From Orbus sasakiae (GTDB lineage: Bacteria > Pseudomonadota > Gammaproteobacteria > Enterobacterales > Orbaceae): DNA of 64,000 bases. Location: NCBI RefSeq assembly GCF_039542345.1, contig NZ_BAABHY010000006.1, positions 28,292-92,291 of the forward strand. Direction: 5' to 3'. The translations under genes and the position numbers were made by a program. This document shows positions 1,029-16,808 of this stretch, one piece after another (position 1 is the stretch's first letter; every line of letters begins with the position of its first letter). Below the pieces are notes generated by a model, which saw only the letters and a list, made by a program, of their open reading frames with translations, did not search any database and was not told where the DNA came from.

Positions 1029-1628
1029 TTAAAAATGCTCAACATGGGTGTTATATAATATTTTGGCAGATTGTTTTATAAGATAGTAGTATTCAACCGC
1101 CTCTTTCATTGTAGGTAGTAAACAATTTTTATCATGAGTTAGTTCATTTCTGCGGTTAGTAAGTGTAGAAATTATTTTAGAGTGATCTTCAGATATAAGA
1201 TGTTGCCAAGCTTGGAGCCTTTTTTTGTTATAAGGCCCTTCAAAAGTAATTAGAAATTCTTTATATATTTCAAACTGCTCTATTATTGCTAGTTTAGCAA
1301 TTACAGATTCAACTCTAGACCCGTCTTTGTTTCTTGGTGGAGACATAGGGGCAGTAACTCCACCATTTGCATTTTTGATAGGAGTATTTCCTATGACTAA
1401 ATTTGCAGCGACACTAAATTCTTTACTCATATTTAATATATATGGATATTCATGATTAATTTGTTCAGCATTTGCTGGAGCTGATAGACAAGGACCTTCT
1501 GTCCAGGCTAAATTATCCTTACCCAAAAATTTCCAATCTAGCATTTTTTCTGCTGAACGCGCATTATCGTAAACAAAACAAGCAGATAATAAGGCCTCTC
1601 CTGAATTTTTAATGTAATCCTCTATCAT
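1029..1628 (-). CDS. HEPN-motif protein (candidate RNase), second gene of the cargo cassette
   Basis: 199 aa with C-terminal 'RRNELTH' (R-x4-6-H, RN..H-type HEPN signature). Starts 9 bp after the upstream TM gene. Very AT-rich. Confidence 0.55.
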   Translation of the reverse strand: MIEDYIKNSGEALLSACFVYDNARSAEKMLDWKFLGKDNLAWTEGPCLSAPANAEQINHEYPYILNMSKEFSVAANLVIGNTPIKNANGGVTAPMSPPRNKDGSRVESVIAKLAIIEQFEIYKEFLITFEGPYNKKRLQAWQHLISEDHSKIISTLTNRRNELTHDKNCLLPTMKEAVEYYYLIKQSAKILYNTHVEHF

Positions 1629-1637
1629 TTTCTTAAC

Positions 1638-2780
1638 CTATTCATTATTTAATAATTCTTTTGGCAATTTATCATTTTCAACAAAAAACTTTAAGATAGG
1701 AAGTATATTGTTAATGTAATATGGGTTTTGATCAAATGCAGAAGAGGTATATTTAATATATAAAGATAATTTAAAATTTTCATTTAGATTTAATTTTAAA
1801 ATCTCGTTTTGAAAATTCTTGATTGTTAGATTTTCTTGTTCTAATTGAGTTAGGTAATCATTTTTTTTTGGTTCCTTTAAATTAGCTTTCAATTTATCTT
1901 CAAGATCATTTTTTTTATTTATATGCTGAAAATATGATGCAATTTTTATGAGTTGGATATCGTTTGTCATCATCATTGAAATTTGTTCTAAGTTTATATG
2001 TTCAAGAAATTTAAATTTATTTAAATATTTTCTATAGTCTTCAAATTTACTAATGGAGGATGGATTTCGTAATCCATTCATAGCAATTACATATAGTAAA
2101 TGTTCGGATATAAAAGAACGCAAAAGACCAGAATAATCATAAATACAACTAACATTGTTTTCATTATCATCAAGGTATTTTAAAAAACGATATAAAAATC
2201 TTAAATAAGCATTAATTGTATTATGTTTTCCTTCGGAAAAAATGCTCTCTAATGTTTTTTGTGTCCAGTTAAAATTGATAACGCCATCAGCTCTTCTAAT
2301 TCGAGATGTAGTTAATTCATTATAAATATTAGTAATATTTTCTGAAAAATCTTTTTGCAGGAAAAAAGCATTATGCTGTTCAAGCATTAATGTAAACATT
2401 CTATCAAAATCATTTTTTTCCGATTCTTTATCTTGTCTTTCTAGTTGTTTTTTTAGTTCTTTGTTTTGATTATGGTTTGTCCATAATAAAATGATTATTG
2501 TTATAAAAGTTAGAATTGGATTGAGAATACCACCTATGTAGTCCCCCATAGCTCCCCAATCTTCTTGGGTTGTCATAATATTATCTACTTTCTTAAAATA
2601 GTTTACATAATCAATTGCTATATTTAGTATCAATAAAAAACATATAACAATAAAAAAAATTGAAACAAGTCCAAACTCATATTTTTTATTAATCCAGATT
2701 CCAAACAAAGCAGTAATTGATACAACTACAACCAAGGAAATAGTAAAATTTAAATCACTCAATAAATTAAAAAACAACAT
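1638..2780 (-). CDS. Membrane protein (3 N-terminal TM helices plus a Lys/Glu/Asn-rich cytoplasmic domain), first gene of the cargo cassette
   Basis: 380 aa. Three hydrophobic helices in the first ~100 aa. No recognisable catalytic motif. Confidence 0.65.
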   Translation of the reverse strand: MLFFNLLSDLNFTISLVVVVSITALFGIWINKKYEFGLVSIFFIVICFLLILNIAIDYVNYFKKVDNIMTTQEDWGAMGDYIGGILNPILTFITIIILLWTNHNQNKELKKQLERQDKESEKNDFDRMFTLMLEQHNAFFLQKDFSENITNIYNELTTSRIRRADGVINFNWTQKTLESIFSEGKHNTINAYLRFLYRFLKYLDDNENNVSCIYDYSGLLRSFISEHLLYVIAMNGLRNPSSISKFEDYRKYLNKFKFLEHINLEQISMMMTNDIQLIKIASYFQHINKKNDLEDKLKANLKEPKKNDYLTQLEQENLTIKNFQNEILKLNLNENFKLSLYIKYTSSAFDQNPYYINNILPILKFFVENDKLPKELLNNE

Positions 2781-3068: not shown

Positions 3069-3311
3069 GACTAAATTCCTTTTGGGTTTAGATAATTTAA
3101 TCACCACCAGCACGCCAATACTGGGGGTGAACTGAACAAGGTTGGCGTACCGCCCCAAAAGATCACGGCGAGCCTTTCGGCTCCCTCATCCAGCCCACCA
3201 TAGAAAAGATGCAACTAGATTGTAAGCATAAAAATACCGCATTGAGCGGTTATGCTCTTTTGGGAATAATCCAAGACGCCAATCTTGACGTTAGATTTTG
3301 CTAACGTGCTT

Positions 3312-3503: not shown

Positions 3504-5672
3504 TTAAAATGAGAATTCAAAATCATCAAATGTACTGATTTTTAACGGTTTTTTAGTGCTATTTTGTCTGTTCTGTGGTGAATTACAGACGATAAGATGC
3601 ACTCCATTTAAAGTGTTATCTAATTTTAAGTATTGGTTTTGACTGATTTTTATACTTTCTCGTAAATAAAGTCGATTTACAGCCAGATCATCATCTGGAA
3701 TACCGATTATTTTTAGCTGTTTTTTTATTTCTTCTCGCTGATCGTCCGCATCATCTTTAAAATTCTGCGTACAGTTATTGACAGAACTCCAAGGCGTGCG
3801 TTCCGCACGATTTTTAAGGTCAAGAGCCTTGCTTGTTTGGCCTTTTTGGATAATCTTACATTTTATTAACCTGGTGCAAATGTATGACGTTAGCCCGACG
3901 ATAGGGGAAAACACACCATTGATTTTTTTGATTGGCTCTTCATATTGGTTGAGTTGCTCTTCATAAGATAGGCGAACGGCTAGATCTTTGCGTTTTACCA
4001 TAGGTCCACCTTGATGGATAGTGTAAGCAGCCCAATCGCCGATATCGGCAGAAGCAAGAACAGGATCGATCACGCTTTCATCTACTGTTTTATCTTTGAG
4101 CCGGCGCAACTCTCGCCAAACAGTAACAGGCGCACCGCCTATTTGTTGAAATTGTCTAATCTTCCATCTGCTTGCCCATGCGGTAACGGCTTTTGCCATA
4201 TTCTTTAAGTTTTGACCAGATTCATTATCGACCGCATCATCAAGTGCATAACCATCAATATTTTTAGATATATATTTTGCTATGTAACCTGTGGCACTCC
4301 CTTTTTCTTTCTCAATCATTTTGAATTCAAAACGGTTTTTAGCGGCTCCTTTTTCGTGACCATCTTCATCCATGGCGTAGATCCACATAATTTTAAATGC
4401 TTTGCTGATATCTTCGGGACGCATAAAAACAAGAATATGCCAATGAGGTGTTCCGTCGTGATGTGGTTCGGCAACTCGAAAACCAAAAACTTTGATATCT
4501 TCACGGGATAGTTTTGCTCGGATTCGTGACCACACTTTACATAAATAGGCTTGAGTATCTTGAGGCGTATTACCAATCCAATTTTCAACAAAGCCACCTC
4601 TTGAATAAACACTGTGATATTTAGATGGGGCGGTTAAAGTAATAAAAGCGCCACAATAGCCAAACTCTTCAGCAATATCTTCAAAACCACGCATACGATT
4701 CATTAACTCAACTCGGCGAATAGCTGGATTAGCAATGGATTTGTAAACTTGTAAATCAAGTGGGATCTGCTCGCCAGTTTCCTCATTTTCGATTGCCATT
4801 CGTTCAAGGTATTTACGATTTCGGCGTTTTTGTTCGTTGAATTCGTTGATACATGAACGGCTTGCGTATGGGCTGGCTTTAGCTTGAACTTGACCAACAG
4901 CAATGGCTAAATGTTCTTTTTGAGTATCACGGCGACGTTGCAATTTATTACGCCACCAATCTTCATTGGTGACTTTTGCCCATGCTTTTATGATGTTTTC
5001 ATTGGTGAGTTTGTCATTTTTATAATCAGCATAGTAGGGCGGTGTAACATTGATTCCGTTTAACTCTTTCAAAATGAGTGAGTAAATTTTGTGTTCGATT
5101 GAATTTTGGTTCACTTCATTAGCTGAAAGAGAAAACGAACTTTCATCCAGTTTTTGAGTGATTAAGTTATTAATATGGCGAGCAATATCGACACTTAATT
5201 TATTAATGCTTTCACGCTCGTATGTTGGCAACTTTTCAAACTCGGCACCAAATACGATAGTCAACGAACTTGGCTTATCTGCTTCATATTTTTGATTTAA
5301 AAGATCAAGTCGACCTTTGATATTTCCGCCTAAGGTTTTGCGTAAAAAAGTATTCGCAGCACGGCGACTTTTCGACTGAAATAAATCAATATATTTATTG
5401 GTAAAATAACTACTTAAATAGTTTGGCAAATTGCCAATATAGTTAGATCTAAAGGCATGATCTTCGTGGTCAATATTCCACAGTTTTATTTCATTATAGG
5501 AAATATCATCAGGAATTCTTTTAGCTACAATTGGCTTTGCTGTTGGCGTTCTATCCACTTTTTTATTTGGTAAGAATCGCCCAACATTTTCATAATAATC
5601 ACGCATAGCCACAAACAAGGAATATTTATCCTTGTTTGAGATTAATGGTAATTGTTGCGTGAATGAGACCAT
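3504..5672 (-). CDS. Phage replication initiation endonuclease, P2 gpA family (rolling-circle HUH nuclease)
   Basis: 722 aa. Contains 'HHDGTPHWHILVF', the HUH-type motif typical of the P2 A / phiX174 A superfamily. Size and position match P2 gene A. Confidence 0.85.
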   Translation of the reverse strand: MVSFTQQLPLISNKDKYSLFVAMRDYYENVGRFLPNKKVDRTPTAKPIVAKRIPDDISYNEIKLWNIDHEDHAFRSNYIGNLPNYLSSYFTNKYIDLFQSKSRRAANTFLRKTLGGNIKGRLDLLNQKYEADKPSSLTIVFGAEFEKLPTYERESINKLSVDIARHINNLITQKLDESSFSLSANEVNQNSIEHKIYSLILKELNGINVTPPYYADYKNDKLTNENIIKAWAKVTNEDWWRNKLQRRRDTQKEHLAIAVGQVQAKASPYASRSCINEFNEQKRRNRKYLERMAIENEETGEQIPLDLQVYKSIANPAIRRVELMNRMRGFEDIAEEFGYCGAFITLTAPSKYHSVYSRGGFVENWIGNTPQDTQAYLCKVWSRIRAKLSREDIKVFGFRVAEPHHDGTPHWHILVFMRPEDISKAFKIMWIYAMDEDGHEKGAAKNRFEFKMIEKEKGSATGYIAKYISKNIDGYALDDAVDNESGQNLKNMAKAVTAWASRWKIRQFQQIGGAPVTVWRELRRLKDKTVDESVIDPVLASADIGDWAAYTIHQGGPMVKRKDLAVRLSYEEQLNQYEEPIKKINGVFSPIVGLTSYICTRLIKCKIIQKGQTSKALDLKNRAERTPWSSVNNCTQNFKDDADDQREEIKKQLKIIGIPDDDLAVNRLYLRESIKISQNQYLKLDNTLNGVHLIVCNSPQNRQNSTKKPLKISTFDDFEFSF

Positions 5673-5684
5673 AGCTAATGAACC

Positions 5685-6509
5685 CTAAACCATATCTGGC
5701 GTTAATACGCCTATAATTTCTTTGGCTTGTTCTCGGTTGCCATTGGCGGCGACAGATCGCCGTGCTTGGATTGAATAAATTTTAAATTGTCGGAATAGGT
5801 AACGGGTATCTGATGTATCGTGATTAGAGATCACAGCACATGCGCCACGTTTTACAGCTTTATAAAGGTGGTAAGCTAATTGTTCCGTTTCGTTATAATC
5901 AAAAGTTGATGGTGTATACCCGTTAAAGCTAACGTCACCACCTAACGGCAAATAAGGGGGATCACAATAAATTACATCACCATTACTAGCGTAGTTAACG
6001 GTGTTTTTATAATCACAGCGAAGCAGTTCAATTGAAAAAGGAATTTGATTCAGCTTTTCTGAAAAAAGCATTAATTCATTAGTAGGATTGTATATATTTT
6101 TATGTTTACCCTCTGGAACATTAAATTGACCACTTTTATTGTATCGGCATACACCATTAAAGCAGTGGCGATTTAAATAGATAAATAATGCAGCTCGTTT
6201 ATTTGTTTGAGATGAGTTATTAAATAATTCCCTTGCTTCATAATAATTAGGGTTTTGACTAAAATAGAAATCAACAAGCGAGATTAATTTTTGTGGCTCT
6301 GCTTTTAACCGGTTATAAACATTGATCAAATCCTGATTAATGTCCGCTAAAAGATACTGTTTATAATTGGTATTGATAAAAACATTACCGCCACCAACAA
6401 AAGGTTCAATCAACCGTTCGCCTTTTGGTAAATACTGCAATAATTGAGGAATAACTCGGCCTTTTCCGCCCATCCATTTAAGGAAAGAGCGATTTGTTTT
6501 AGTTTGCAT
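5685..6509 (-). CDS. dam: DNA adenine methyltransferase, Dam ortholog (D12 class)
   Basis: 'FLKWMGGKGRV...EPFVGGGNVF...NRHCFNGVCRYN...CDPPY' aligns with E. coli Dam motifs by eye. Confidence 0.85.
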   Translation of the reverse strand: MQTKTNRSFLKWMGGKGRVIPQLLQYLPKGERLIEPFVGGGNVFINTNYKQYLLADINQDLINVYNRLKAEPQKLISLVDFYFSQNPNYYEARELFNNSSQTNKRAALFIYLNRHCFNGVCRYNKSGQFNVPEGKHKNIYNPTNELMLFSEKLNQIPFSIELLRCDYKNTVNYASNGDVIYCDPPYLPLGGDVSFNGYTPSTFDYNETEQLAYHLYKAVKRGACAVISNHDTSDTRYLFRQFKIYSIQARRSVAANGNREQAKEIIGVLTPDMV

Positions 6510-6525
6510 TGTGAACCCTTAAAAC

Positions 6526-7326
6526 TTAATAGTTACTATCTTTTATCCAAATACATTCCTTACGGATGATTTGGCCTTTTTGACCTGCTGCGCGTGCTGG
6601 TGAAGTTCTTTTTTGCCAGACAAATAAATAGTCGTTATATAAATCGCAATCGTATCCAGAAATAACCACGCTTCCGGACAGATTATTTGCTGAAATTAAT
6701 AATTGTTCGTGGTCGTCAATTGCCATTTCGTATTGATAAACATTGGTTGATGTTCTTGTTTCGCTCATGTAGGGCGGATCTAAATAGAACAAGGTTTTTG
6801 GTGAATCGTGTTTTTGTAATAGTTCCAATGCCGGAATATTTTCTATAATCACGCCAGTTAAGCGTTGGCAAATAAATGCTAAGTTGTTAGGTATTTTTGC
6901 CCATACTGTTGCATCAGTGGTTTTGCCTTTTCTTGTGCTACCCGAAAAGCCAGTACAACCTTTAATGCAACCAGTTGAAGAAAAAGACATAAATGACCTA
7001 ACTAACATTCGGCGAGCCTGTTCAACTTGCTGCGAACCTAAACTATTACCGGCATCAAAATACTCACTGCGGTGAAATGGTGTTAATGCAACTAAATCAA
7101 TTAGTTGCTTGGAAAGAATCGGATCCCTTAATACCTTAAATAAATTGACAACATCATTATTAAGATCGTTATAAACCTCATTACCCAATCTTGGTTTTTG
7201 AAGTAATACGCCAGCAGCACCGCCAAAGGCTTCAACATAAATTTCATGTTTAGGAAAATGGCTAATAATCCAAGGGGCTAACCTAAATTTACCGCCAAAA
7301 TATCTTAATAATGGATGTTTGATCAT
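6526..7326 (-). CDS. Second N6-adenine DNA methyltransferase (D12 class, divergent from Dam)
   Basis: 'RYFGGKFRLAPWI...EAFGGAAGV' (motif I) and 'DPPY' (motif IV). Confidence 0.75.
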   Translation of the reverse strand: MIKHPLLRYFGGKFRLAPWIISHFPKHEIYVEAFGGAAGVLLQKPRLGNEVYNDLNNDVVNLFKVLRDPILSKQLIDLVALTPFHRSEYFDAGNSLGSQQVEQARRMLVRSFMSFSSTGCIKGCTGFSGSTRKGKTTDATVWAKIPNNLAFICQRLTGVIIENIPALELLQKHDSPKTLFYLDPPYMSETRTSTNVYQYEMAIDDHEQLLISANNLSGSVVISGYDCDLYNDYLFVWQKRTSPARAAGQKGQIIRKECIWIKDSNY

Positions 7327-8172: not shown

Positions 8173-8307
8173 TTAACGTTGAGTTAACTTAACCGCTTTG
8201 CCGTTTGGTTTTTCGATCCAACCTTTGCGGTTATGGTTGTTGGTTTTGATAAAAATTAAAGCAGGCTTATCGGCTGCTTTTGGACTTAAATAGATTGCGT
8301 GGCTCAT
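8173..8307 (-). CDS. Small phage protein (44 aa), translationally coupled (ATGA) to the Cox-like gene
   Basis: AGGA RBS. Start overlaps the upstream stop. Occupies the P2 orf78-like position. Confidence 0.3.
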   Translation of the reverse strand: MSHAIYLSPKAADKPALIFIKTNNHNRKGWIEKPNGKAVKLTQR

Positions 8308-8549
8308 GATTTATCCTCGTCGAGTTTTAACTCTGGGTTAAATGCTTTTGCACCTTCCAAAGTTAAGGCTGTCATGTTGATAAGCGTTGTAGAACGGTCG
8401 TACTTACCAGTGATTTTCTTTTTACGAATAGGGAGCTTACCTTCGCTAATGTACTTTTTAACGGTGCGAGGATTCATGCCCGACACACGAGCAAACTCGT
8501 CAACCGTGACATAAGGTGATGAAATAGCTATTGATATTGTTGGCGTCAT
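8304..8549 (-). CDS. HTH DNA-binding regulator (Cox/Apl-like early-operon regulator)
   Basis: 81 aa. 'TVDEFARVSGMNPRTVKKYISEGKLP' is an HTH. First gene of the leftward early operon, divergent from the repressor. Confidence 0.55.
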   Translation of the reverse strand: MTPTISIAISSPYVTVDEFARVSGMNPRTVKKYISEGKLPIRKKKITGKYDRSTTLINMTALTLEGAKAFNPELKLDEDKS

Positions 8550-8669
8550 AGTGCATTATTCCTAGTTAGATGATTTTATATGTTCAAATAGGTAAAATCT
8601 AAATTCAAGTTAAATATATTCTAAATTGAATTTAGAGTCAACGCCTTTTTATTAACTTTAGGTTTGATT
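8550..8669. promoter_or_regulatory. Immunity-switch intergenic region with repeated half-sites (putative operators)
   Basis: Half-site ctaaatt occurs twice direct (8600, 8621) and once inverted (8629-8635), forming a perfect 7+7 palindrome ctaaattGaatttag. AT-rich divergent promoters. Confidence 0.4.
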
Positions 8670-9029
8670 ATGAAAATTAATTTTGAAAGTGGTGGTGCGG
8701 AAGTTATAGATAGAATTATTAAGGCCTATGGTTTTAGGACAAAATTGGAATACAGTAATTATTTAGGCACATCTTCGGCTAATATGTCTGCACGTTATAA
8801 AAAAGGTTTTTTCCCTTCAGACTTAGTTGTCCGATGTATGGCCGAAACGGGCGCAACATTGGAATGGCTTGTTACTGGTGAGGGCGAGTTTTCACCAAAC
8901 GAACCAACCCCAAAAGAAACCGTTCTATCGGATGAAACACTGGAAAAACTTGAACGATTAGTCACCCTAAAAGAAAAGGGCGCAATAACCGAACAAGAGT
9001 TTAATGATCTTAAAGCTAAGTTGATTTGA
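8670..9029 (+). CDS. CI-type phage repressor with a C-terminal SHOCT-like domain
   Basis: The N-terminus resembles the Phage_CI_repr HTH. C-terminal 'LEKLERLVTLKEKGAITEQEFNDLKAKL' is a SHOCT-like motif. An AGGT RBS precedes ATG 8670; the track ORF starts at an upstream TTG. Confidence 0.65.
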   Translation: MKINFESGGAEVIDRIIKAYGFRTKLEYSNYLGTSSANMSARYKKGFFPSDLVVRCMAETGATLEWLVTGEGEFSPNEPTPKETVLSDETLEKLERLVTLKEKGAITEQEFNDLKAKLI

Positions 9030-9075: not shown

Positions 9076-10173
9076 ATGAAAAAATTCGTATTTAAGAAAG
9101 ATAAAAAGCATTGGCTGAGGATGGTCGAAAAACGTAATGATAGAAGAAAAGAGTCAAAAAATGATAAGCATTTAAGCACAATAGGAAGCAAATCACTTTA
9201 TGCTAATTCCAAAAAACGTGAAAAAGTTATTATGCCTAAAATTGTAGCACCCAGGATAATGTTGCTAAAAGTTAGTGAATATTACAATCAATTTATTAAT
9301 TTCATTAACGACTTTGAAAGACTATGTAAAAAAGCTAATGAGTTAAAATTTAGATTTGAATTAGACTTGAGCCATATAAAAGAGATGTATGGAGATGCTT
9401 GTGTATTATTCATTGCATCAGTTGACAGCATGTATCAACTATATCCAAATTTAAAAATCAAAATAAGGAAGCCAATAAAAGACATTACCTCTCGATATGA
9501 TCCTCATGCCGTCTTTTGTCACCTTGGTTTTTATAAATTATTTGGCCTAGAATACTCAGCTGATTGTTCAAGTGAGAATGTAGTATGTTGGAGGTATGTA
9601 ACTGGTGATTTAGCTGATGGGCAATTAACAGAACCTTTGATGAAAACATTAAATGATATGGGAATTAATACAAAGGAATTATATAGAAGCTGTATTGAAG
9701 GTATTGCTAATGCTGTTGAGCATGCATATATTCCACAGATTAAGTCTTCTCGTGATGTTAGAAATAAAAAATGGTGGATGTTATTAGCTAAATTGGATGG
9801 TAAATTACTATTATTTGTTTATGATCGTGGGCATGGAATTCCATCTACTTTGGAGTACACCCAAGATCAAAAAATTCTAAAGGAAATATGGAAAAAACTA
9901 AAACAACTAGTATCACCAACAAAGGATTGCTTATATATTAAGGCCTCAATGTTAGTAAAAGAAACTAGAACTGAATTAAATTATAGAGGTAAAGGAACAG
10001 GAGACATAAAATCATTTATAGACAAAACTGAAGGTAATCTTTTGAGAATATACTCAAGTAGAGGCACAATGATTTATAAAGGTGAATCTACGCCATCATT
10101 TTGCTATGATAACTCCATATCTATTAATGGTACTCTATTGCAGTGGAGTATCAAATTGCAGGATACTATATGA
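9076..10173 (+). CDS. GHKL (HATPase_c) domain protein, SpoIIAB/RsbW-like Ser-kinase/ATPase fold in the C-terminal half
   Basis: N-box 'EGIANAVEHAY', G1 box 'YDRGHGIP', G2 box 'GKGTGD'. N-terminal ~190 aa unassigned. Confidence 0.55.
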   Translation: MKKFVFKKDKKHWLRMVEKRNDRRKESKNDKHLSTIGSKSLYANSKKREKVIMPKIVAPRIMLLKVSEYYNQFINFINDFERLCKKANELKFRFELDLSHIKEMYGDACVLFIASVDSMYQLYPNLKIKIRKPIKDITSRYDPHAVFCHLGFYKLFGLEYSADCSSENVVCWRYVTGDLADGQLTEPLMKTLNDMGINTKELYRSCIEGIANAVEHAYIPQIKSSRDVRNKKWWMLLAKLDGKLLLFVYDRGHGIPSTLEYTQDQKILKEIWKKLKQLVSPTKDCLYIKASMLVKETRTELNYRGKGTGDIKSFIDKTEGNLLRIYSSRGTMIYKGESTPSFCYDNSISINGTLLQWSIKLQDTI

Positions 10174-10496
10174 AAACTATTTATGTTAGAGATTTTACTA
10201 AATACCCTGGAGCAAGACTTAGGAAATTAGGTCCGGGCAGTGGCGAAGAGTTTAGAGATGATTTTCTTATTCCACAACTGGATGGTAAAAATATTCAGAT
10301 CAATTTTGATGGAACTATTGGTTATGGTTCTTCTTTTCTTGAAGAAGCTTTTGGAGGCTTGATAAGAAAAGGAATTGATAAAGAAATTGTTTTGCACCTT
10401 GTTGATACAGCGATCTCGGATGAAGATCCATTATTGAAGAAAGAACTACTCATTTATGTAACGGAAGCTATCGCCGTTAACAAAAAAGGTAAATGA
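10170..10496 (+). CDS. STAS-like (DUF4325-like) small protein, candidate partner of the GHKL protein
   Basis: ATGA overlap with the upstream gene. 'ARLRKLGPGSGEEFR...INFDG..GYGSSFLEEAFGGLIRKG' resembles the DUF4325/STAS pattern. Confidence 0.45.
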   Translation: MKTIYVRDFTKYPGARLRKLGPGSGEEFRDDFLIPQLDGKNIQINFDGTIGYGSSFLEEAFGGLIRKGIDKEIVLHLVDTAISDEDPLLKKELLIYVTEAIAVNKKGK

Positions 10497-10497
10497 T

Positions 10498-10929
10498 ATG
10501 ACTACATCTGATTGGATTTCATTATGTTCATTGTTTATCGCGTTAATTGGAGTTCCTTTAGGATATTATTTAGGTTGCAGAAGTGCAAGACATGCAGCAT
10601 ATAATGACATGATTGATACTTTGGAAAGCATAACTCAGACAACATTTAATCTATTTTTAGAAATTTATACCAAACAGTCTGTAAATGATATTAAAGATTA
10701 CCATTTGATGATTGCTTATTATAAAAAGATACAAAGACATTGTTCCGAACTGAGAACAATGAAAAAAATCGCAATGCATAACAAAATAGACAATTTGTTG
10801 ATAGAAGTTAAACAAATAATGACAGATAAATTATTTCATGCAAATGAAGCAATAAAACAAAACTCACTTAGTGAGTTAATAGTGAAAATGGATGAACTGA
10901 ACGCTTTATACACAAAACGTTTTTATTAA
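10498..10929 (+). CDS. Small membrane-anchored protein (1 N-terminal TM), third gene of the moron
   Basis: Start 1 nt after the upstream stop. N-terminal hydrophobic helix 'ISLCSLFIALIGVPLGYYLG'. Confidence 0.5.
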   Translation: MTTSDWISLCSLFIALIGVPLGYYLGCRSARHAAYNDMIDTLESITQTTFNLFLEIYTKQSVNDIKDYHLMIAYYKKIQRHCSELRTMKKIAMHNKIDNLLIEVKQIMTDKLFHANEAIKQNSLSELIVKMDELNALYTKRFY

Positions 10930-10979
10930 TTAAATTATTTTTTGTTATTTTACCGTTATAGAGACCTTTTCTATTATTA

Positions 10980-11999
10980 ATGACAGTACGCAAACAAAAA
11001 TCAGGTAAATGGTTATTTGAAAAATACCTTGATGGTGGTCGTAGAGTTCGTAAGACTTTTGCAACCAAAGGCGAGGCATTAGCTTATGAAAATTATTTAG
11101 AAGAACAAACCAACGAAAGGCCTTGGTTAGGTGAAAAGATTGATCGCCGGCGTATTTCTGATTTAATTGATACTTGGTTTAATTCTCATGGTAAAGCGCT
11201 TGATAATGGTGAAAAGGTAAAGGGTATTTTAACTTTTATCTGTGAGTGTATTAATAATCCGTTAGTTGATGATTTTACTGCTAAAACATTTACCAATTAC
11301 CGTAAAAAAAGAATGTCTGGCGAATTTTTCCGGACAGAAAAAAAGAAAACTGTATCACTAAACACCTTAAATAAAGAGTTAATCTATTTTAGGGCTGTTT
11401 TTAATGAATTGAAACGCCTTGGCGAATGGGATAAACCAAACCCACTAGAGAACATCAAAGTCTTTAAACTTGATGAAACAGAGATGGCATGGCTAACCCA
11501 CGAGCAGATAGATCATCTCTTAAAGGAATGTGCTAATAGCCAGGCAGAACATCTTTTACTTAAAGTACAAATTGGATTGTCAACTGGTGCCCGATGGGGT
11601 GAAATCAACAACCTTACGGGCTTAAATGCTATTGATAATAAAATTACTTATGTAAAAACCAAAGGCCGTAAAAATAGAACAATTCCTATATCGAAACAGT
11701 TATTTGATCGAATACCAAAAACACAAGGTAAGCTGTTCCCAGATGGCGATAATATTAGTGCATTCCGAAAAGCTTTAAATCGATGTAATATCTCTTTACC
11801 TGATGGACAACTAACACACGTTCTAAGACATACATTTGCAGCCCATTTTATGATGAATGGTGGCAATATTCTTGTATTACAAAAAATACTCGGACACCAA
11901 GATATAAAAGTCACTATGAGATATGCTCACTTTGCTCCAGATCACTTTGAGCAAGCGATTGAGTTGAACCCTTTGAATAAACAAAATATTAGCAGGTAA
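10980..11999 (+). CDS. int: Tyrosine integrase, P2 Int family
   Basis: 'LSTGARWGEI', 'HVLRHTFAAHFMMNGGNILVLQKILGH...MRYAHF' align with P2 Int catalytic motifs (R..HxxR..Y). Confidence 0.9.
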   Translation: MTVRKQKSGKWLFEKYLDGGRRVRKTFATKGEALAYENYLEEQTNERPWLGEKIDRRRISDLIDTWFNSHGKALDNGEKVKGILTFICECINNPLVDDFTAKTFTNYRKKRMSGEFFRTEKKKTVSLNTLNKELIYFRAVFNELKRLGEWDKPNPLENIKVFKLDETEMAWLTHEQIDHLLKECANSQAEHLLLKVQIGLSTGARWGEINNLTGLNAIDNKITYVKTKGRKNRTIPISKQLFDRIPKTQGKLFPDGDNISAFRKALNRCNISLPDGQLTHVLRHTFAAHFMMNGGNILVLQKILGHQDIKVTMRYAHFAPDHFEQAIELNPLNKQNISR

Positions 12000-12003
12000 C
12001 ATT

Positions 12004-12714
12004 ATGGATAAAACTTATAATATTTATTGTGATGAATCATGTCATTTAGAACATGATAACCAAACGGCAATGGTATTAGGTTCGGTATGGTGTCCATTCT
12101 CGAAAAGAGAGGAAATATCTAAGCGAATTAGAGAGATAAAGCAAAGAAATAATATGTCACCTCATTTTGAAATTAAGTGGACAAAAGTTAGTGAAGGTAA
12201 TTTACGTTTATACATGGATATTATTGACTATTTTTTTGACGATGATGATTTGTATTTTAGGGGCTTAGTGGTTCCAAATAAAAATGTTCTAGACCATGAA
12301 AAATTTAATCAAACGCATGATGAATGGTATTACAAAATGTACTTTTTATTATTGAAAATGATATTTGAACCATGCAATAAATATAATGTATATATTGATA
12401 TTAAAGATACCACTGGCAATACTAAAGTTATAAAATTACATAATATATTATGTAATAGTGCTTATGATTATTCACATAATATTATTCAAAAAATTCAAAG
12501 AATTCACTCCCACGAGTCTGAACAGTTACAAATAGCAGATCTTATTATTGGTGCTTTATCTTATCTATTTAGAGGGCTTGCAGATAATAAAGCCAAAGTA
12601 AAAATAATTGAAAGGATAAAACAACGTACACAATTAAGTTTAACAAAAAACACATTACCTAAAGCAAAAAAATTTAATCTTCTAATATGGGATAAAAAAG
12701 AGGGAGATGAATAA
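12004..12714 (+). CDS. DUF3800-like protein (cargo gene between int and att)
   Basis: N-terminal 'YNIYCDESCHLEHDN' and a later 'EQLQIADLIIG' resemble DUF3800 conserved motifs (recalled from memory, unverified). Confidence 0.45.
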   Translation: MDKTYNIYCDESCHLEHDNQTAMVLGSVWCPFSKREEISKRIREIKQRNNMSPHFEIKWTKVSEGNLRLYMDIIDYFFDDDDLYFRGLVVPNKNVLDHEKFNQTHDEWYYKMYFLLLKMIFEPCNKYNVYIDIKDTTGNTKVIKLHNILCNSAYDYSHNIIQKIQRIHSHESEQLQIADLIIGALSYLFRGLADNKAKVKIIERIKQRTQLSLTKNTLPKAKKFNLLIWDKKEGDE

Positions 12715-13190
12715 TGTCTGAATGGTTACCGCCTATAATTCCTAATAATGGCTACAACGATTGGAATCATTACTTTAATGCAATATATAAAGTATTTGAG
12801 CAAGATTTTGTTATAGATAGACCAGTATATAATGGTGTCCGGTTAGGATTGAAAAATCACCCCGAATATAATGGAAAATCTGCCACATTTTGGCATCTTA
12901 TCTCTGAGGGGAGCATTGAAGAAGAGCGATTACCTTGCACTTATAGATGCGAACGAATTACGTATCCTAAACCAATTATTGATAATAGTAATGATGGATG
13001 TTTAAAAATATGGACAGAATTACGAAAAGGAGAAAATAGAATTCATATATGGTATGAAGATGAAAATTACCTTGTTGTATTAGCGGAACGCAAAAAAGGT
13101 TACATATTACCATGGACCGCTTTTTATATAAAAGAAGAACATAGCAAAATAAAATATAATCGGAGATGGATGCAGTATAAAGATAAGTAA
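12714..13190 (+). CDS. Hypothetical protein, translationally coupled partner of the DUF3800-like gene
   Basis: The start overlaps the upstream stop (TAATG). 158 aa, no motif recognised. Confidence 0.5.
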   Translation: MSEWLPPIIPNNGYNDWNHYFNAIYKVFEQDFVIDRPVYNGVRLGLKNHPEYNGKSATFWHLISEGSIEEERLPCTYRCERITYPKPIIDNSNDGCLKIWTELRKGENRIHIWYEDENYLVVLAERKKGYILPWTAFYIKEEHSKIKYNRRWMQYKDK

Positions 13191-13461
13191 TTTAGGCTGG
13201 CCTCGCCCTTATATTAGGACGGGACCGTATCTCCTTCAACACATGGTAGATGAGATGGCGTTATTATAACAATAATAATTGTGTAAAGTCTATAATTACA
13301 AACAAATATGTGACCTTTGTCATAAGTTCGGTAGGAAATCTGTTACCATAATGGCGGTAAAACGGCGGTTAAAAATCTTTTTATATGTTCTTTTGTGTGT
13401 TTATATGTTTTTTAACTAATTGATTTATTTGTAACTTATTGTTTTTATTGTATCGATTAAA

Positions 13462-13509
13462 GGATTGAAAATCCCCGTGTCCGTGGTTCGATTCCGCGTC
13501 CGGGCACCA
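13462..13509 (+). other. 3'-terminal 48 nt of tRNA-Phe(GAA) (anticodon stem to CCA): prophage att core, not a complete tRNA gene
   Basis: ggattGAAaatccccgtgtccgtggttcgattccgcgtccgggcacca matches the E. coli tRNA-Phe 3' half with compensatory T-stem changes. No 5' acceptor or D arm upstream. Confidence 0.75.
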
Positions 13510-13558
13510 ATCACCAAATTTTAAGACCTGCTTCCAGCAGGTTTTTTTATGCCTAAAG
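13487..13558 (+). repeat. Direct repeat copy 1 (tRNA-Phe 3' end plus ~48 bp downstream flank including terminator)
   Basis: ~72 bp, near-identical to 16419..16490. Confidence 0.75.
13527..13549 (+). terminator. Rho-independent terminator (native tRNA-Phe terminator carried in the repeat)
   Basis: cctgcttccagcagg followed by TTTTTTT. Confidence 0.6.
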
Positions 13559-13745
13559 CCTTTTGATGAAAGCCTTTCACCTTGTTTTACTACTCAACTC
13601 ACTTCAACAGATATTACCCCAAATCAAGTTCAAAAGTGGATACAAATGCGGGTACATTTGGTTCGATAATGGCGTGTATCCATAAATTAGTCTTAATTGC
13701 TTTGTTTGCAATGGTTAGCAGGATTTGCTAGTGAGAATATCAATT

Positions 13746-14885
13746 TTATCTGAATAAATTATCATACAAATTAGTTTTTTGAAGATTGTTATTTAACTCT
13801 TCAACTGAATTAATTATTTTATTTTTACAGGGATAATAAAATGAGCTATAAAATTGCCAAAAATTGATATCTGTATCACAAGTTTCCATATTCAGTATCA
13901 TGTCAAAATGGTGATTAATGTATTTTATTATCTCATTGAAAATGAAATCTGTAGTTTTATTGATATGCTCCCACTTTTTAGGTGGGGGAAGGTCTAGGAA
14001 GAATTTATCAGTTGTATCTATTATTTCTTTTATCACATCTTGTTGATCTTCCGTTATTAAAGCGTGGAACACAGTAATAGCTAATAGTTCAAAGAAACAA
14101 AAATACCGTTCAATATTTCCCCCTAAATTAATGTTTTCTTTATAGCTTTCTAATTTAGAATAAGAAGCACGATAATCGATAGATGTTGATATATTTTTTA
14201 TCAATAAATTATAAATAGGATAGTTATCAAACCTGTAACTTCCATATGAGGAAACCCGCTTTTCATAAATATTATCAATAATTTTATTTCCTATTTCCTC
14301 AATATAAGCAGAGGTCTTTTCTTTATATGTTTCTTTGAGATTATTATAAAAATTGATTCTTTCTGTTGAAGAAAATCGTTTTCGTAGAACTTCATCAATT
14401 TCAAAATTACTTTTTTTATCAGCTTTATTTTTTATGATATTGTTACTCATTTTGAATAATATTGCCGACGGTATTTTTAATATTTTATAGTCATGTTTTT
14501 CTAAAATCATATCTGTAGATGAAAACAATGGATTTAAAGATAAACAATATGATTTTGTATTTAAAATCCAGTAATCATGTTTAAAAAAACCACTATTGAT
14601 TAGTTTGTTTGTTACAACCTGTTTTTCTATTGAAAAATAAATTTCGGTTATATCGCTTAATTGTTCAATTTGCTCTAAGTAATCAGGATATTGCCTAAAT
14701 AGTGAATTTATCTCTTGCCACTCTTCTTTTTTTAGAAAATTGCTTAAGTGGAAACATTGATTGCTACAAAAGAATTTATTATTTGTTTTAAGCACTGCCC
14801 TGTTACAAAACTGACATTTTTTTTCGATGAAATCAGACGCTTTAACACGATTACGTTCCCAGTTTATATAATGAATCAAGCACAA
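13746..14885 (-). CDS. Hypothetical protein with an N-terminal Cys4 zinc-ribbon (orphan gene in the att-bounded islet)
   Basis: 379 aa. 'CQFCNRAV...CSNQCF'. Extremely AT-rich with Asn/Ile/Lys-rich codon usage. Confidence 0.55.
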   Translation of the reverse strand: MCLIHYINWERNRVKASDFIEKKCQFCNRAVLKTNNKFFCSNQCFHLSNFLKKEEWQEINSLFRQYPDYLEQIEQLSDITEIYFSIEKQVVTNKLINSGFFKHDYWILNTKSYCLSLNPLFSSTDMILEKHDYKILKIPSAILFKMSNNIIKNKADKKSNFEIDEVLRKRFSSTERINFYNNLKETYKEKTSAYIEEIGNKIIDNIYEKRVSSYGSYRFDNYPIYNLLIKNISTSIDYRASYSKLESYKENINLGGNIERYFCFFELLAITVFHALITEDQQDVIKEIIDTTDKFFLDLPPPKKWEHINKTTDFIFNEIIKYINHHFDMILNMETCDTDINFWQFYSSFYYPCKNKIINSVEELNNNLQKTNLYDNLFR

Positions 14886-14961
14886 CTTTTTTTGTTTAGC
14901 ATAAGGATGTGATCTGCTCTTAGTTTAGTGGAGACTTTTTAACAACAAAAAGGAGTCTCAT

Positions 14962-15255
14962 ATGAACAAAAAATACGATCCAAAATTTAAACAAGAAGCG
15001 GTTAATTTAGCACTAAATAACGAACAAACTTATCGACAAACAGCGAATGATTTAGGTATAAATTACAAAACATTTTGTAATTGGATATATCAAACGATGA
15101 ATAAACCTACCCATCAAGCGATAAAATCAAATAAAAAACCAGACTATCAAGAACTCGAGCGTCAAAATGAAGCGATGAAAAAAGAGCTTGAGCTACGCAA
15201 AAAGGAGATCGAAATTCTAAAAAAGGCCGCTCAGTACTTTGCAAGCCTGAAATAG
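14962..15255 (+). CDS. IS3-family transposase OrfA (HTH/leucine-zipper)
   Basis: 97 aa, typical IS3 OrfA. Slippery AAAAAAG lies near its 3' end. Confidence 0.8.
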   Translation: MNKKYDPKFKQEAVNLALNNEQTYRQTANDLGINYKTFCNWIYQTMNKPTHQAIKSNKKPDYQELERQNEAMKKELELRKKEIEILKKAAQYFASLK

Positions 15256-15302
15256 CAAGGTACGAATTTATTAAGAAGCAAAACGATTTATCTAAGCAAC
15301 GT

Positions 15303-16013
15303 TTGTTTCATCTATTTGACGTGTCGAGCAGTGGTTATTATGCCTATTTAAAACGGTCTCCGTCTCAGAGGATGTTGTTTAATGAGCAGCTTGACAAAAG
15401 AATTGCAGCACTATTTGAAGAGCATCGGTGTCTATACGGTTATAGACGTTTACATGTCGAACTTTTGGAGCAAGGCTATTATTTATCACGTGAACGAGTT
15501 CGTCGACGAATGAATAAACTTCACCTAAAGGCAAAACAACGCAAAAAGTATAAACAAACAACAGACAGTAACCACGACAAACCCGTTGCTGAAAATATTT
15601 TAGACAGGCATTTTTCAATGAATGCACCAAATCAAGCTTGGGTATGCGATATCACCTATATTAGAGTGAACGGGCAGTGGCTATACCTCGCTATTGTACT
15701 TGACCTCTACTCTCGTAAAATCATAGGCTGGGCGATGGATATACGCATGGAAAGCGCCCTCGTTTGTCAAGCCTTAACAATGGCTTTGCTTCATCGTGCT
15801 TATCCGAGTAAAGTGATTGTTCATAGTGATCGCGGCAGTCAGTATTGCTCAGAGGATTATCAAGCCATATTAACGGCTTATGGCTTAACGTGTAGTATGA
15901 GCCGCAAAGGTAACTGTTGGGATAATGCGGTGGCTGAAAGCTTTTTCCATACATTAAAAACAGAATGGATTTATCGACACAAACTAGAAAATATGGCAAA
16001 GCCAAGTCGATGA
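15303..16013 (+). CDS. IS3-family transposase OrfB (DDE core). The C-terminal ~30 codons continue in another frame to ~16110, so the 3' end looks frameshifted
   Basis: DDE-region motifs 'VHSDRGSQY...NCWDNAVAESFF'. The expected C-terminus '...YIEVYYNRVRKHSYLNYLSPVQFE' is encoded out of frame after 16013. Confidence 0.7.
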   Translation: MFHLFDVSSSGYYAYLKRSPSQRMLFNEQLDKRIAALFEEHRCLYGYRRLHVELLEQGYYLSRERVRRRMNKLHLKAKQRKKYKQTTDSNHDKPVAENILDRHFSMNAPNQAWVCDITYIRVNGQWLYLAIVLDLYSRKIIGWAMDIRMESALVCQALTMALLHRAYPSKVIVHSDRGSQYCSEDYQAILTAYGLTCSMSRKGNCWDNAVAESFFHTLKTEWIYRHKLENMAKPSR

Positions 16014-16418
16014 TCTTGTGGTATATTGAGGTTTACTATAACCGAGTAAGAAAGCATTCTTATTTAAACTATTTATCACCCGTTCAATTTGAAGAAAAGA
16101 GGATTTAATAGTTTCAAAATAACTCTCCACTTAAATGTGGGCAGATCAGTTGTAACTGCTACCTTAGATATTGACTCACTTCGAGCATTCCAAAGCCGAG
16201 CAAAACGCTGGCCTGAAGAAGGGGACAAGTTTAAACCAGTACCTGAAGGGTTCAAATTATCAAAAGACAGAAGAAAACTACCTCCTAAGTAAAATTATAG
16301 TAGAAATATCTTCACTGAACATAAATATAAAAGAAATAAAATTAAAGGATACAAACCCGGATACATCCTCTCACCTAAAATCCACCGACCCAATAACCCC
16401 AATGCTTTAGCCTATCTA

Positions 16419-16490
16419 TTCGATTCCGCGTCCGGGCACCAATTACCAAATTTTAAGACCTGCTTCTAGCAGGTTTTTTTATGTCTAAAA
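16419..16490 (+). repeat. Direct repeat copy 2 (last 23 nt of tRNA-Phe plus downstream flank)
   Basis: ttcgattccgcgtccgggcacca plus flank. Matches copy 1 with a few substitutions. Confidence 0.75.
16459..16481 (+). terminator. Rho-independent terminator (second copy)
   Basis: cctgcttctagcagg followed by a T-run. Confidence 0.5.
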
Positions 16491-16808
16491 CCCATTAAAA
16501 CCTACAAAAGCTTATGAAGAAAGGCTTTTCAGTAATATACTAAACTCTTGATTTATCGACTATTACTCATTTTGAACTCCACCGAAGTCAATCTACATTA
16601 CCCCACATCAACAAGCAAAAAGGGTAAAAAAGAGGGTAACACTCGGTTCAATTTAGGTTGTTACCCTTATGAAGAGTAAAAAGATAGATTATTTCTAGCA
16701 TAACGACATATTTTACAAAAAAGATCCTTCCAAAAATATTAAATAGCAATAATTCGTTGAAAAAAAATATCTTGTTTATATAATTTGGATTAATAATTTG
16801 ACAGTACC

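Follow-up and report, generated by a model that had tools for sequence, protein, structure and literature searches.

The genome of phage P1 contains two adjacent genes, rlfA and rlfB (rapA and rapB in phage P7), which are annotated as 'possibly associated with lytic replication', an annotation that rests on their position beside repL. Both were found to be non-essential in a genome-wide CRISPR interference (CRISPRi) screen (PMC10695390), and some P1-like plasmids have lost them or carry other genes in their place (PMC6906374). Payne et al. recorded the pair as cassette CAS_00034 (table figure 679) and assigned it to PDC-M04; PDC systems were selected on the basis of their embedding in BREX, DISARM or type I restriction-modification (RM) systems (bioRxiv 10.1101/2024.01.29.577857). 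The pair described here, genes A and B, lies in a stretch of 64,000 nucleotides from Orbus sasakiae (contig NZ_BAABHY010000006.1, positions 28,292 to 92,291; hereafter the window), at one end of a P2-like prophage. It belongs almost certainly to the RlfA/RlfB family (P1 rlfAB, P7 rapAB, PADLOC PDC-M04), and a function as a mobile defence or exclusion module is favoured, by a modest degree of confidence.

Gene A (12004..12714, plus strand; open reading frame list, Pfam and PADLOC) encodes a DUF3800, RlfA-like or PDC-M04A protein of 236 amino acids (aa), and gene B (12714..13190, plus strand) encodes its RlfB-like or PDC-M04B partner of 158 aa, an alpha+beta protein outside any Pfam family. A aligns with the PADLOC PDC-M04A model PDLC04353 via residues 1-232 (profile positions 1-229 of 232; 1.4e-95) and B with the PDC-M04B model PDLC04357 via residues 1-157 (profile positions 1-158 of 162; 2.6e-62). 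The order, A followed by B, adjacent and on the same strand, is that of the PDC-M04 cassette (FAM_00014>>FAM_00043). In BLASTP comparisons, A shares 50% identity with P1 RlfA over 230 aa (3e-92) and B 38% identity with P1 RlfB over 143 aa (1e-31); homology of B to RlfB of P1 and RapB of P7 was also obtained by tblastn. B further matches PHROG 16230, which carries, as does the RefSeq record, the RlfB label 'replication protein', a label that goes back to the annotation of P1 by the repL-adjacent position. A reading made previously from the letters of this DNA (the sequence-only reading) had described B as lacking any recognisable motif. This is correct for Pfam and NCBIfam, the latter being without a match for A as well, and was superseded by the matches to PDC-M04B, PHROG 16230 and P1 RlfB. 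Since the RlfA/RlfB pair is already listed as PDC-M04, the locus is a further copy of a catalogued defence-candidate family and no new kind of system.

The two reading frames had been proposed to overlap in a TAATG motif, and this can be read directly at the coordinates given above. Base 12714 is both the last of the TAA stop codon of A (12712-12714) and the first of the ATG start codon of B (12714-12716); the resulting junction of five bases (12712..12716, plus strand) has a one-base overlap that implies translational coupling. The same arrangement recurs throughout the family: the distance from the stop of A to the start of B ranges from -17 to +17 nucleotides (nt) in 97 loci, with an overlap in 80 of them. 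In all 80 genome loci retrieved with A, the gene that immediately follows A on its strand encodes a B homologue (B being split in two of them), and in 19 of the 20 viral contigs retrieved with B, the gene for A immediately precedes it. The exception (L094; IMG/VR 3300006349_000039, 601-1035) is the one B homologue in which no A gene could be detected upstream; it is located in high-GC DNA, the N-terminal 27 residues of the B family are unmatched in it, and it looks like an N-terminally divergent or degraded B copy. A and B were considered as chance reading frames as well, a possibility rejected because each has hundreds to thousands of homologues and their adjacency is constant. A-B is thus an obligate, strictly co-inherited, translationally coupled two-gene module.

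Proteins resembling A form 7155 clusters at E<=0.001, a number that may include other DUF3800 proteins. Homologues 45-67% identical to A of the window are found in Gammaproteobacteria, Deltaproteobacteria, Nitrospirota, Chloroflexi, Firmicutes, and Bacteroides, and further in Verrucomicrobia, Planctomycetes, Spirochaetes, Actinobacteria, and lineages of the Candidate Phyla Radiation (CPR). The B family comprises 1649 representatives at 50% clustering, and nearly all of those among the matches listed are standalone proteins of 155-180 aa. A is the more conserved partner in each of 99 loci (median identity 52% vs 34% for B). With respect to base composition, the GC content of A (27.1%), B (32.3%), and the neighboring integrase gene int (35.2%) supports the proposed AT-richness of the pair relative to int clearly for A and only marginally for B.

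The sequence-only reading had associated A with DUF3800 on the grounds of the motifs YNIYCDESCH (residues 5-14) and EQLQIADLI (residues 173-181). Both are present, and Pfam DUF3800 (PF12686) indeed matches A with a score of 54.2 bits (cutoff 21; E=3.5e-14), the alignment spanning profile positions 1-148 of 149. The domain has been described as RNase H2-like with DE and QxxD motifs (PMC7736814; PMC10910872), which correspond to D10-E11 and Q176-x-x-D179 in A. Among 36 homologues, D10, E11, D132, D135, and D179 are invariant and Q176 is conserved in at least 90%. D10-E11 are situated on the first strand, D132/D135 after a central strand, and Q176xxD179 in a late helix, and the modeled protein is predicted to adopt a type-2 RNase H (RNase HII/H2A)-like fold. 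Such a layout of invariant residues would be expected both of the active site of a type-2 RNase H and of the DE/QxxD signature of DUF3800; candidate catalytic carboxylates are D10, E11, D132 or D135, and D179, to which Q176 is added. While the predicted fold of A matches those of type 2 RNases H (RNase HII/H2A/HIII), A stands outside RNase HII at the level of sequence families, with no RNase HII match in Pfam or NCBIfam. A search of PDB sequences with the family profiles of A and B returned nothing meaningful. Near the pair, neither a DUF3800-associated RNA motif nor another structured RNA was detected, as an Rfam scan of the window at the gathering threshold and a permissive scan of 10800-13800 yielded hits at chance level only.

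The conserved polar residues of B are D31, H61, R72, R78, R81, and T135. Among 136 diverse members of the family, H61 is retained in 100%, R78 in 98%, R72 and T135 in 91% each, and R81 in 88%, which suggests that this set may constitute a phosphate- or nucleic-acid-binding or a catalytic site. RelE/HigB/colicin D-type toxins recur among the weak structure matches of B (Foldseek probability <=0.33), and an alignment of the B profile with E. coli RelE, for which an approximate sequence was used, gave an hhalign probability of 0.1. B as a RelE/ParE/colicin D (BECR)-like RNase toxin was rejected as demonstrated, the similarity being too weak, and the RelE-type resemblance is treated as a faint lead.

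In a sizeable minority of the loci, the surroundings of the family are those of restriction systems, and some 10-15% are placed between hsdS and hsdR of a type I system. The immediate upstream neighbor of the pair is a type I specificity subunit in 11 of 71 loci, and the immediate downstream neighbor is a type I restriction subunit in eight of 75; other neighbors are type III and IIG enzymes, Mrr, GmrSD, AbiEi, and further PDC candidates. Explicit hsdS-A-B-hsdR operons, with all genes on the same strand, are present in two loci (L020 and L069). Most of the 80 genome-assembly loci are devoid of phage genes beside the pair. PrrC occupies the slot between hsdS and hsdR in the EcoprrI operon. It has been found almost exclusively embedded in type I RM systems (bioRxiv 10.1101/2024.01.29.577857). 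By analogy, the hsdS-hsdR placement of A-B suggests that a PrrC-like 'backup to restriction' logic might apply; cleavage of tRNA by the pair would be speculation. The copy in the window has no RM partner and must therefore be able to act alone.

The same embedding bears on the idea that the pair is a counter-defence factor of mobile elements, that is a nuclease destroying the multicopy single-stranded DNA (msDNA) of retrons, guide RNA/DNA hybrids, or signaling molecules. The pair is carried by phages and prophages, in P1 it is found near a C1 operator, which fits early lytic expression, and DUF3800 is tied to systems based on RNA-DNA hybrids (type VII retrons, Cas12a2/a3 loci). However, a same-strand position between hsdS and hsdR is a signature of host defence modules and not of anti-defence genes, and the pair of the window is part of a lysogenic rather than an early lytic operon, so that a counter-defence function is regarded as highly improbable.

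In the window, the pair is preceded by a P2-type tyrosine integrase gene (int, 10980..11999, plus strand; Pfam Int_N 5.7e-33, Phage_integrase 5.1e-22), whose product resembles the integrases of Peduovirus-type phages and whose stop codon precedes the start codon of A by 4 nt on the same strand. Further upstream, a CI-type repressor gene (8664..9029, plus strand; Pfam Phage_CI_repr 4.2e-20) starts a series of genes in the order CI, 365-aa protein, DUF4325 protein, 143-aa protein, int, A, and B. Every gene between 8664 and 13190 is on the plus strand, and the gaps do not exceed 51 nt. A repressor followed by int, read toward att, is the arrangement of P2. For comparison, a sample of related prophages was used that consists of 80 IMG/VR loci with integrases 54-68% identical to that of the window, each retrieved with a maximum of 6 kb of sequence to the left and to the right of int; CI is located upstream of int in all 80. 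No terminator-like site was predicted between int and A, the sole plus-strand match in the scanned stretch being inside B; the same promoter/terminator scan found fewer promoter-like sites than in shuffled sequence. Because of the 4-nt spacing between int and A, the co-orientation, and the lack of a predicted terminator between the two, the run from CI to B is presumed to be the lysogenic operon, in which A and B would be cotranscribed with the repressor and int in the lysogen.

Downstream of B, a non-coding stretch of 271 nt (13191..13461), presumably the attP arm, separates the pair from the att core; it contains no open reading frame with homologues. Tandem GGCGGT(A/T)AAA repeats at 13353-13373 may be integrase arm sites. 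If the stretch is indeed the attP arm, the pair would have been inserted between int and an intact arm. The att core itself (13462..13509, plus strand) marks the integrase-proximal prophage end. Its 48 nt are the 3' terminus of a tRNA-Phe(GAA) gene and extend from the anticodon stem up to the CCA end. An annotated tRNA-Phe gene that matches from 13462 onward is present in each of the 5426 E. coli genomes searched. As no intact tRNA-Phe gene was found in the window by ARAGORN, the fragment is taken for the displaced 3' end at the integrase-proximal junction. It is followed by a hairpin with a T-run (13526..13549, plus strand), read from the sequence as the original terminator of the tRNA gene. 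A second copy of the tRNA-Phe 3' end (16419..16492, plus strand), composed of 23 nt and the same 50-nt terminator flank, is a 95% direct repeat of 13487-13560. The terminator is kept in this copy and also in a Gilliamella locus described below. The sequence-only reading had placed the pair between int and a tRNA-Phe att core. This location is confirmed, as int ends 4 nt before A and the core follows B at 13462; the core is real as well, with the amendment that it is a 3' fragment and present twice. Its description of the int-att interval as an accessory position is in line with a 2026 survey, in which 3% of the defence systems of P2-like prophages were located in this interval, making it a minor hotspot, compared to 8% in the int-primase interval (PMC13586616).

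Neither A nor B was found in any of the 80 related prophages. Hence the pair is accessory and not part of the phage backbone, as the sequence-only reading had supposed, and no excisionase or regulator profile, which that reading had named as a finding that would speak against it, is assigned to either protein. The pair is a self-contained, horizontally mobile module, which the P2-like prophage at tRNA-Phe carries as an accessory in its int-att hotspot. The one hint at a role in integration or excision, as an excisionase, recombination directionality factor or regulatory factor, is the location of the pair, 4 nt behind int and 271 nt ahead of the att core. Such a role is hardly conceivable, given that A and B contain no helix-turn-helix (HTH), Xis, Cox or HTH_17-type domain, that a Cox-like HTH gene already exists at 8304-8549, that all 80 prophages with related integrases do without the pair, and that loci outside phages, from many phyla, contain the pair as well. 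With neither a matching domain nor conservation in the phage lineage (0/80), this explanation is effectively refuted.

The closest copies of the pair are located on Gilliamella contigs without an integrase, with 89% protein identity for A and 85% nucleotide identity. The nucleotide homology reaches from 64 nt inside the 3' end of int to the last bases of B. In Gilliamella sp. Occ4-3 (L102; LZHR01000098, 3442-8508), the last 64 nt of int, A-B, an inverted att-arm segment, and the tRNA-Phe 3' flank are preserved. A TacA/GNAT-toxin pair adjoins this region. Because of the int residue, the inverted att-arm segment, and the tRNA-Phe flank near the pair, the locus is what is left of a prophage that decayed at the same chromosomal tRNA-Phe site, with the pair kept after the loss of int. 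The segment corresponding to 13185-13374 of the window is 82% identical, and since it is separate from the pair and inverted in this remnant, this stretch lies outside the A-B module.

Retention of the pair in a remnant would also be expected of an addiction or toxin-antitoxin (TA)-like module, in which one protein is neutralized by the other, the toxin being either the conserved nuclease A or B as an RNase-like enzyme. Loss of the pair would then kill the cell, and prophages, P1 plasmids, and RM operons would be stabilized rather than defended against phages. The strict two-gene layout with translational coupling fits such a module, as do the presence of the pair on the P1 plasmid-prophage, the His/Arg/Thr/Tyr set of B, which resembles the active sites of metal-independent RNases, and the slower evolution of A compared to B in 99 of 99 loci, as often observed for toxins versus antitoxins. 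Yet searches of Pfam and NCBIfam revealed no HTH, ribbon-helix-helix (RHH) or AbrB antitoxin domain in A or B, so neither protein has a recognisable DNA-binding antitoxin domain; both proteins exceed the typical size of type II components, and the likeness of B to RelE-type toxins is insignificant by the Foldseek and hhalign values given above (<=0.33 and 0.1). Moreover, CRISPRi knock-down of P1 rlfA or rlfB had no effect on plaquing fitness (PMC10695390), in an assay that is blind to addiction. An addiction function is accordingly judged unlikely; TA and defence functions are, however, not mutually exclusive.

The label 'replication protein' corresponds to yet another explanation, namely that the pair is an accessory of phage replication, with A processing RNA primers or R-loops at the phage origin and B serving as a cofactor. 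In P1, the genes directly follow repL/oriL, hence their annotation as possibly linked to lytic replication, and both PHROG and RefSeq use the replication name for RlfB. The RNase H fold predicted for A would suit primer or R-loop processing, and in P1vir transcriptomes rlfA/B track other replication/processing genes, with rlfB boosted early together with repL. The label is positional only, however, and the P1 genes are non-essential (PMC10695390) and replaced in some P1-like elements (PMC6906374). Most of the 80 genome loci have no adjacent phage genes, several are inside RM operons, and none of the 80 related prophages needs the pair. In the window, A-B is not beside a lytic replicon or C1 operator; the replication gene gpA (3504-5672) is on the opposite (minus) strand at a distance of about 6 kb, and the pair is included in the repressor/integrase operon. 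Taken together, a replication function is very unlikely. In P1 itself (NC_005856, 4123-5456), the C1 operator Orlf is situated about 100 nt upstream of the predicted rlfA promoter. As Orlf does not cover this promoter, the annotation is compatible with rlfAB being either silent or active in P1 lysogens.

The interpretation of A-B as a mobile defence or exclusion module builds on the embedding in type I RM systems, the listing as PDC-M04, the accessory status, and the documented int-att hotspot. For its action, the following scheme is proposed. A and B would form one complex, in which A might act as a metal-dependent nuclease on RNA/DNA hybrids or related nucleic-acid structures. B might bind nucleic acids and thereby target or gate A, unless it is itself a second RNase, which is a lesser possibility. 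In a lysogen, cotranscription with the repressor and integrase genes would ensure that the pair is present, and it would act against incoming phages or other mobile DNA, either through degradation of replication intermediates of the invader or through abortive infection. The specific nuclease mechanism, an RNase HII-like nuclease A with B as targeting or gating partner, is put forward tentatively and is rather doubtful in its details. An even more far-reaching version, which is quite unlikely, sees RlfAB/PDC-M04 as a widespread two-enzyme abortive-infection system, in which the RNase HII-like A is gated by a His/Arg-dependent RNA-binding or RNA-cleaving B of new fold. This system would sense an infection-specific RNA/DNA hybrid or the loss of restriction, and it would either operate on its own, as in prophages and in P1, or serve type I RM operons as a backup in the manner of PrrC.

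Several points weigh against a defence function and the mechanism outlined for it. The 145 PDC systems, PDC-M04 included, are called untested by their authors (bioRxiv 10.1101/2024.01.29.577857), and a literature search found no paper on phage protection by any family member; 'PDC-M04' had no full-text match in this search, and papers on DUF3800/PF12686 only remark on the domain. About 80% of the genomic loci have no recognisable defence gene as an immediate neighbor, and the neighbor frequencies are raw counts without background control. On the structural side, Foldseek returned no PDB structure match for B at E<=0.001, and the assignment of the putative catalytic carboxylates in A is one by sequence position and predicted fold. 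That transcripts started at the repressor promoter extend through int to A-B is presumed, and the position of the P1 pair beside the lytic replicon, with the C1 operator upstream, suggests lytic-phase rather than lysogenic expression in that phage.

Apart from the pair, the window contains several features of the P2-like prophage, whose early region (gpA, methylases, Cox-like HTH, CI) occupies its left part. It includes the aforementioned Cox-like HTH gene (HTH_17; minus strand) and two adjacent genes for D12-class (Dam-like) adenine methyltransferases (5685-7326, minus strand). A second cargo slot is located between CI and int (9076-10929, plus strand), encoding the 365-aa protein (PHROG 3364, no Pfam match), a 117-aa DUF4325/STAS-like protein, and the 143-aa protein; no PADLOC match was obtained for this trio. 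The gap between CI and int ranges from 0 to ~3.8 kb in the 80 related prophages, of which only one (L121) carries the same trio, and the slot corresponds to the int-primase hotspot of P2 (PMC13586616). Two further proteins are encoded downstream of gpA (1029-2780, minus strand), one of 380 aa, in which a putAbiC domain was recognized (E=1e-7), and one of 199 aa without assigned function; their position is that of the classic tin/old defence hotspot of P2. A C4 antisense RNA (67.8 bits) with an adjacent isrK-like RNA (58.4 bits) is found at 3120-3307 (minus strand), representing a P1/P7-type immunity RNA inside a P2-like prophage. Beyond the att core, the two tRNA-Phe 3' end/terminator copies border a small tandem island (~13560-16418) with a very AT-rich open reading frame of 379 aa without family match (13746-14885, minus strand) and an IS3-type orfA/orfB transposase (14962-16108). 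At 36684-37668, three tandem repeat units of ~340-357 nt (71-89% identical) each contain a terminator-like hairpin, and two of them encode a conserved open reading frame of 38-39 aa (MLRRPRxSNxxLRLPVPLRV...); Rfam gave no match for these repeats.

The locus itself is ordinary, a catalogued candidate in a known prophage hotspot. What is new is the link between prophage cargo, the long-unexplained rlfA/rlfB of P1, and the PADLOC candidate PDC-M04, which are the same module. The comparison also sharpens the picture of this module as a coupled two-gene unit, distributed over many phyla including CPR, with an unusually conserved RNase HII-like subunit (median identity 52%) and a partner without Pfam or NCBIfam family or significant match to a solved structure. 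If the abortive-infection scenario were true, P1 rlfAB would receive a function some twenty years after its naming, and a new RNase H-based immune mechanism would be at hand. P1 is a standard laboratory phage with dispensable rlfAB; therefore, the function of the family is directly testable.

Among known systems, PrrC/RloC-type nucleases share with part of the A-B family the hsdS-hsdR slot, and B weakly resembles the colicin D tRNase fold. These nucleases differ in that the pair shows no homology to them, has no ABC ATPase domain, and gives no such PADLOC match. A shares its Pfam domain and its predicted RNase H-like fold with the DUF3800 proteins in type VII retron effectors and with the tetratricopeptide repeat (TPR)-DUF3800 proteins encoded next to Cas12a2/Cas12a3, which belong to immune contexts built on RNA-DNA hybrids or RNA-guided nucleases. 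In contrast to these, the pair of the window comes without a reverse transcriptase, non-coding RNA, TPR domain or CRISPR locus; in addition, the type VII retron clade lacks the Q of the QxxD motif (PMC7736814), which A retains as Q176. With PADLOC PDC-M04, the pair shares end-to-end matches of both genes and the recorded A-then-B order, and the type I RM embedding of that family was reproduced in an independent locus sample; the copy in the window differs by its location in a prophage int-att hotspot, not within an RM, BREX or DISARM system. The likeness to rlfA/rlfB of P1 (rapA/rapB of P7) extends over the full length of both proteins, to the gene order, the one-base stop/start overlap, and the sizes (234/154 aa in P1 vs 236/158 aa in the window), and both phages, which are temperate, carry the pair as non-essential, variable cargo. 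In P1, the pair is located behind the lytic replicon repL/oriL and has a C1 operator upstream of it, whereas in the window it comes after int at the end of the prophage, within the repressor operon of a phage that is P2-like and not P1-like.

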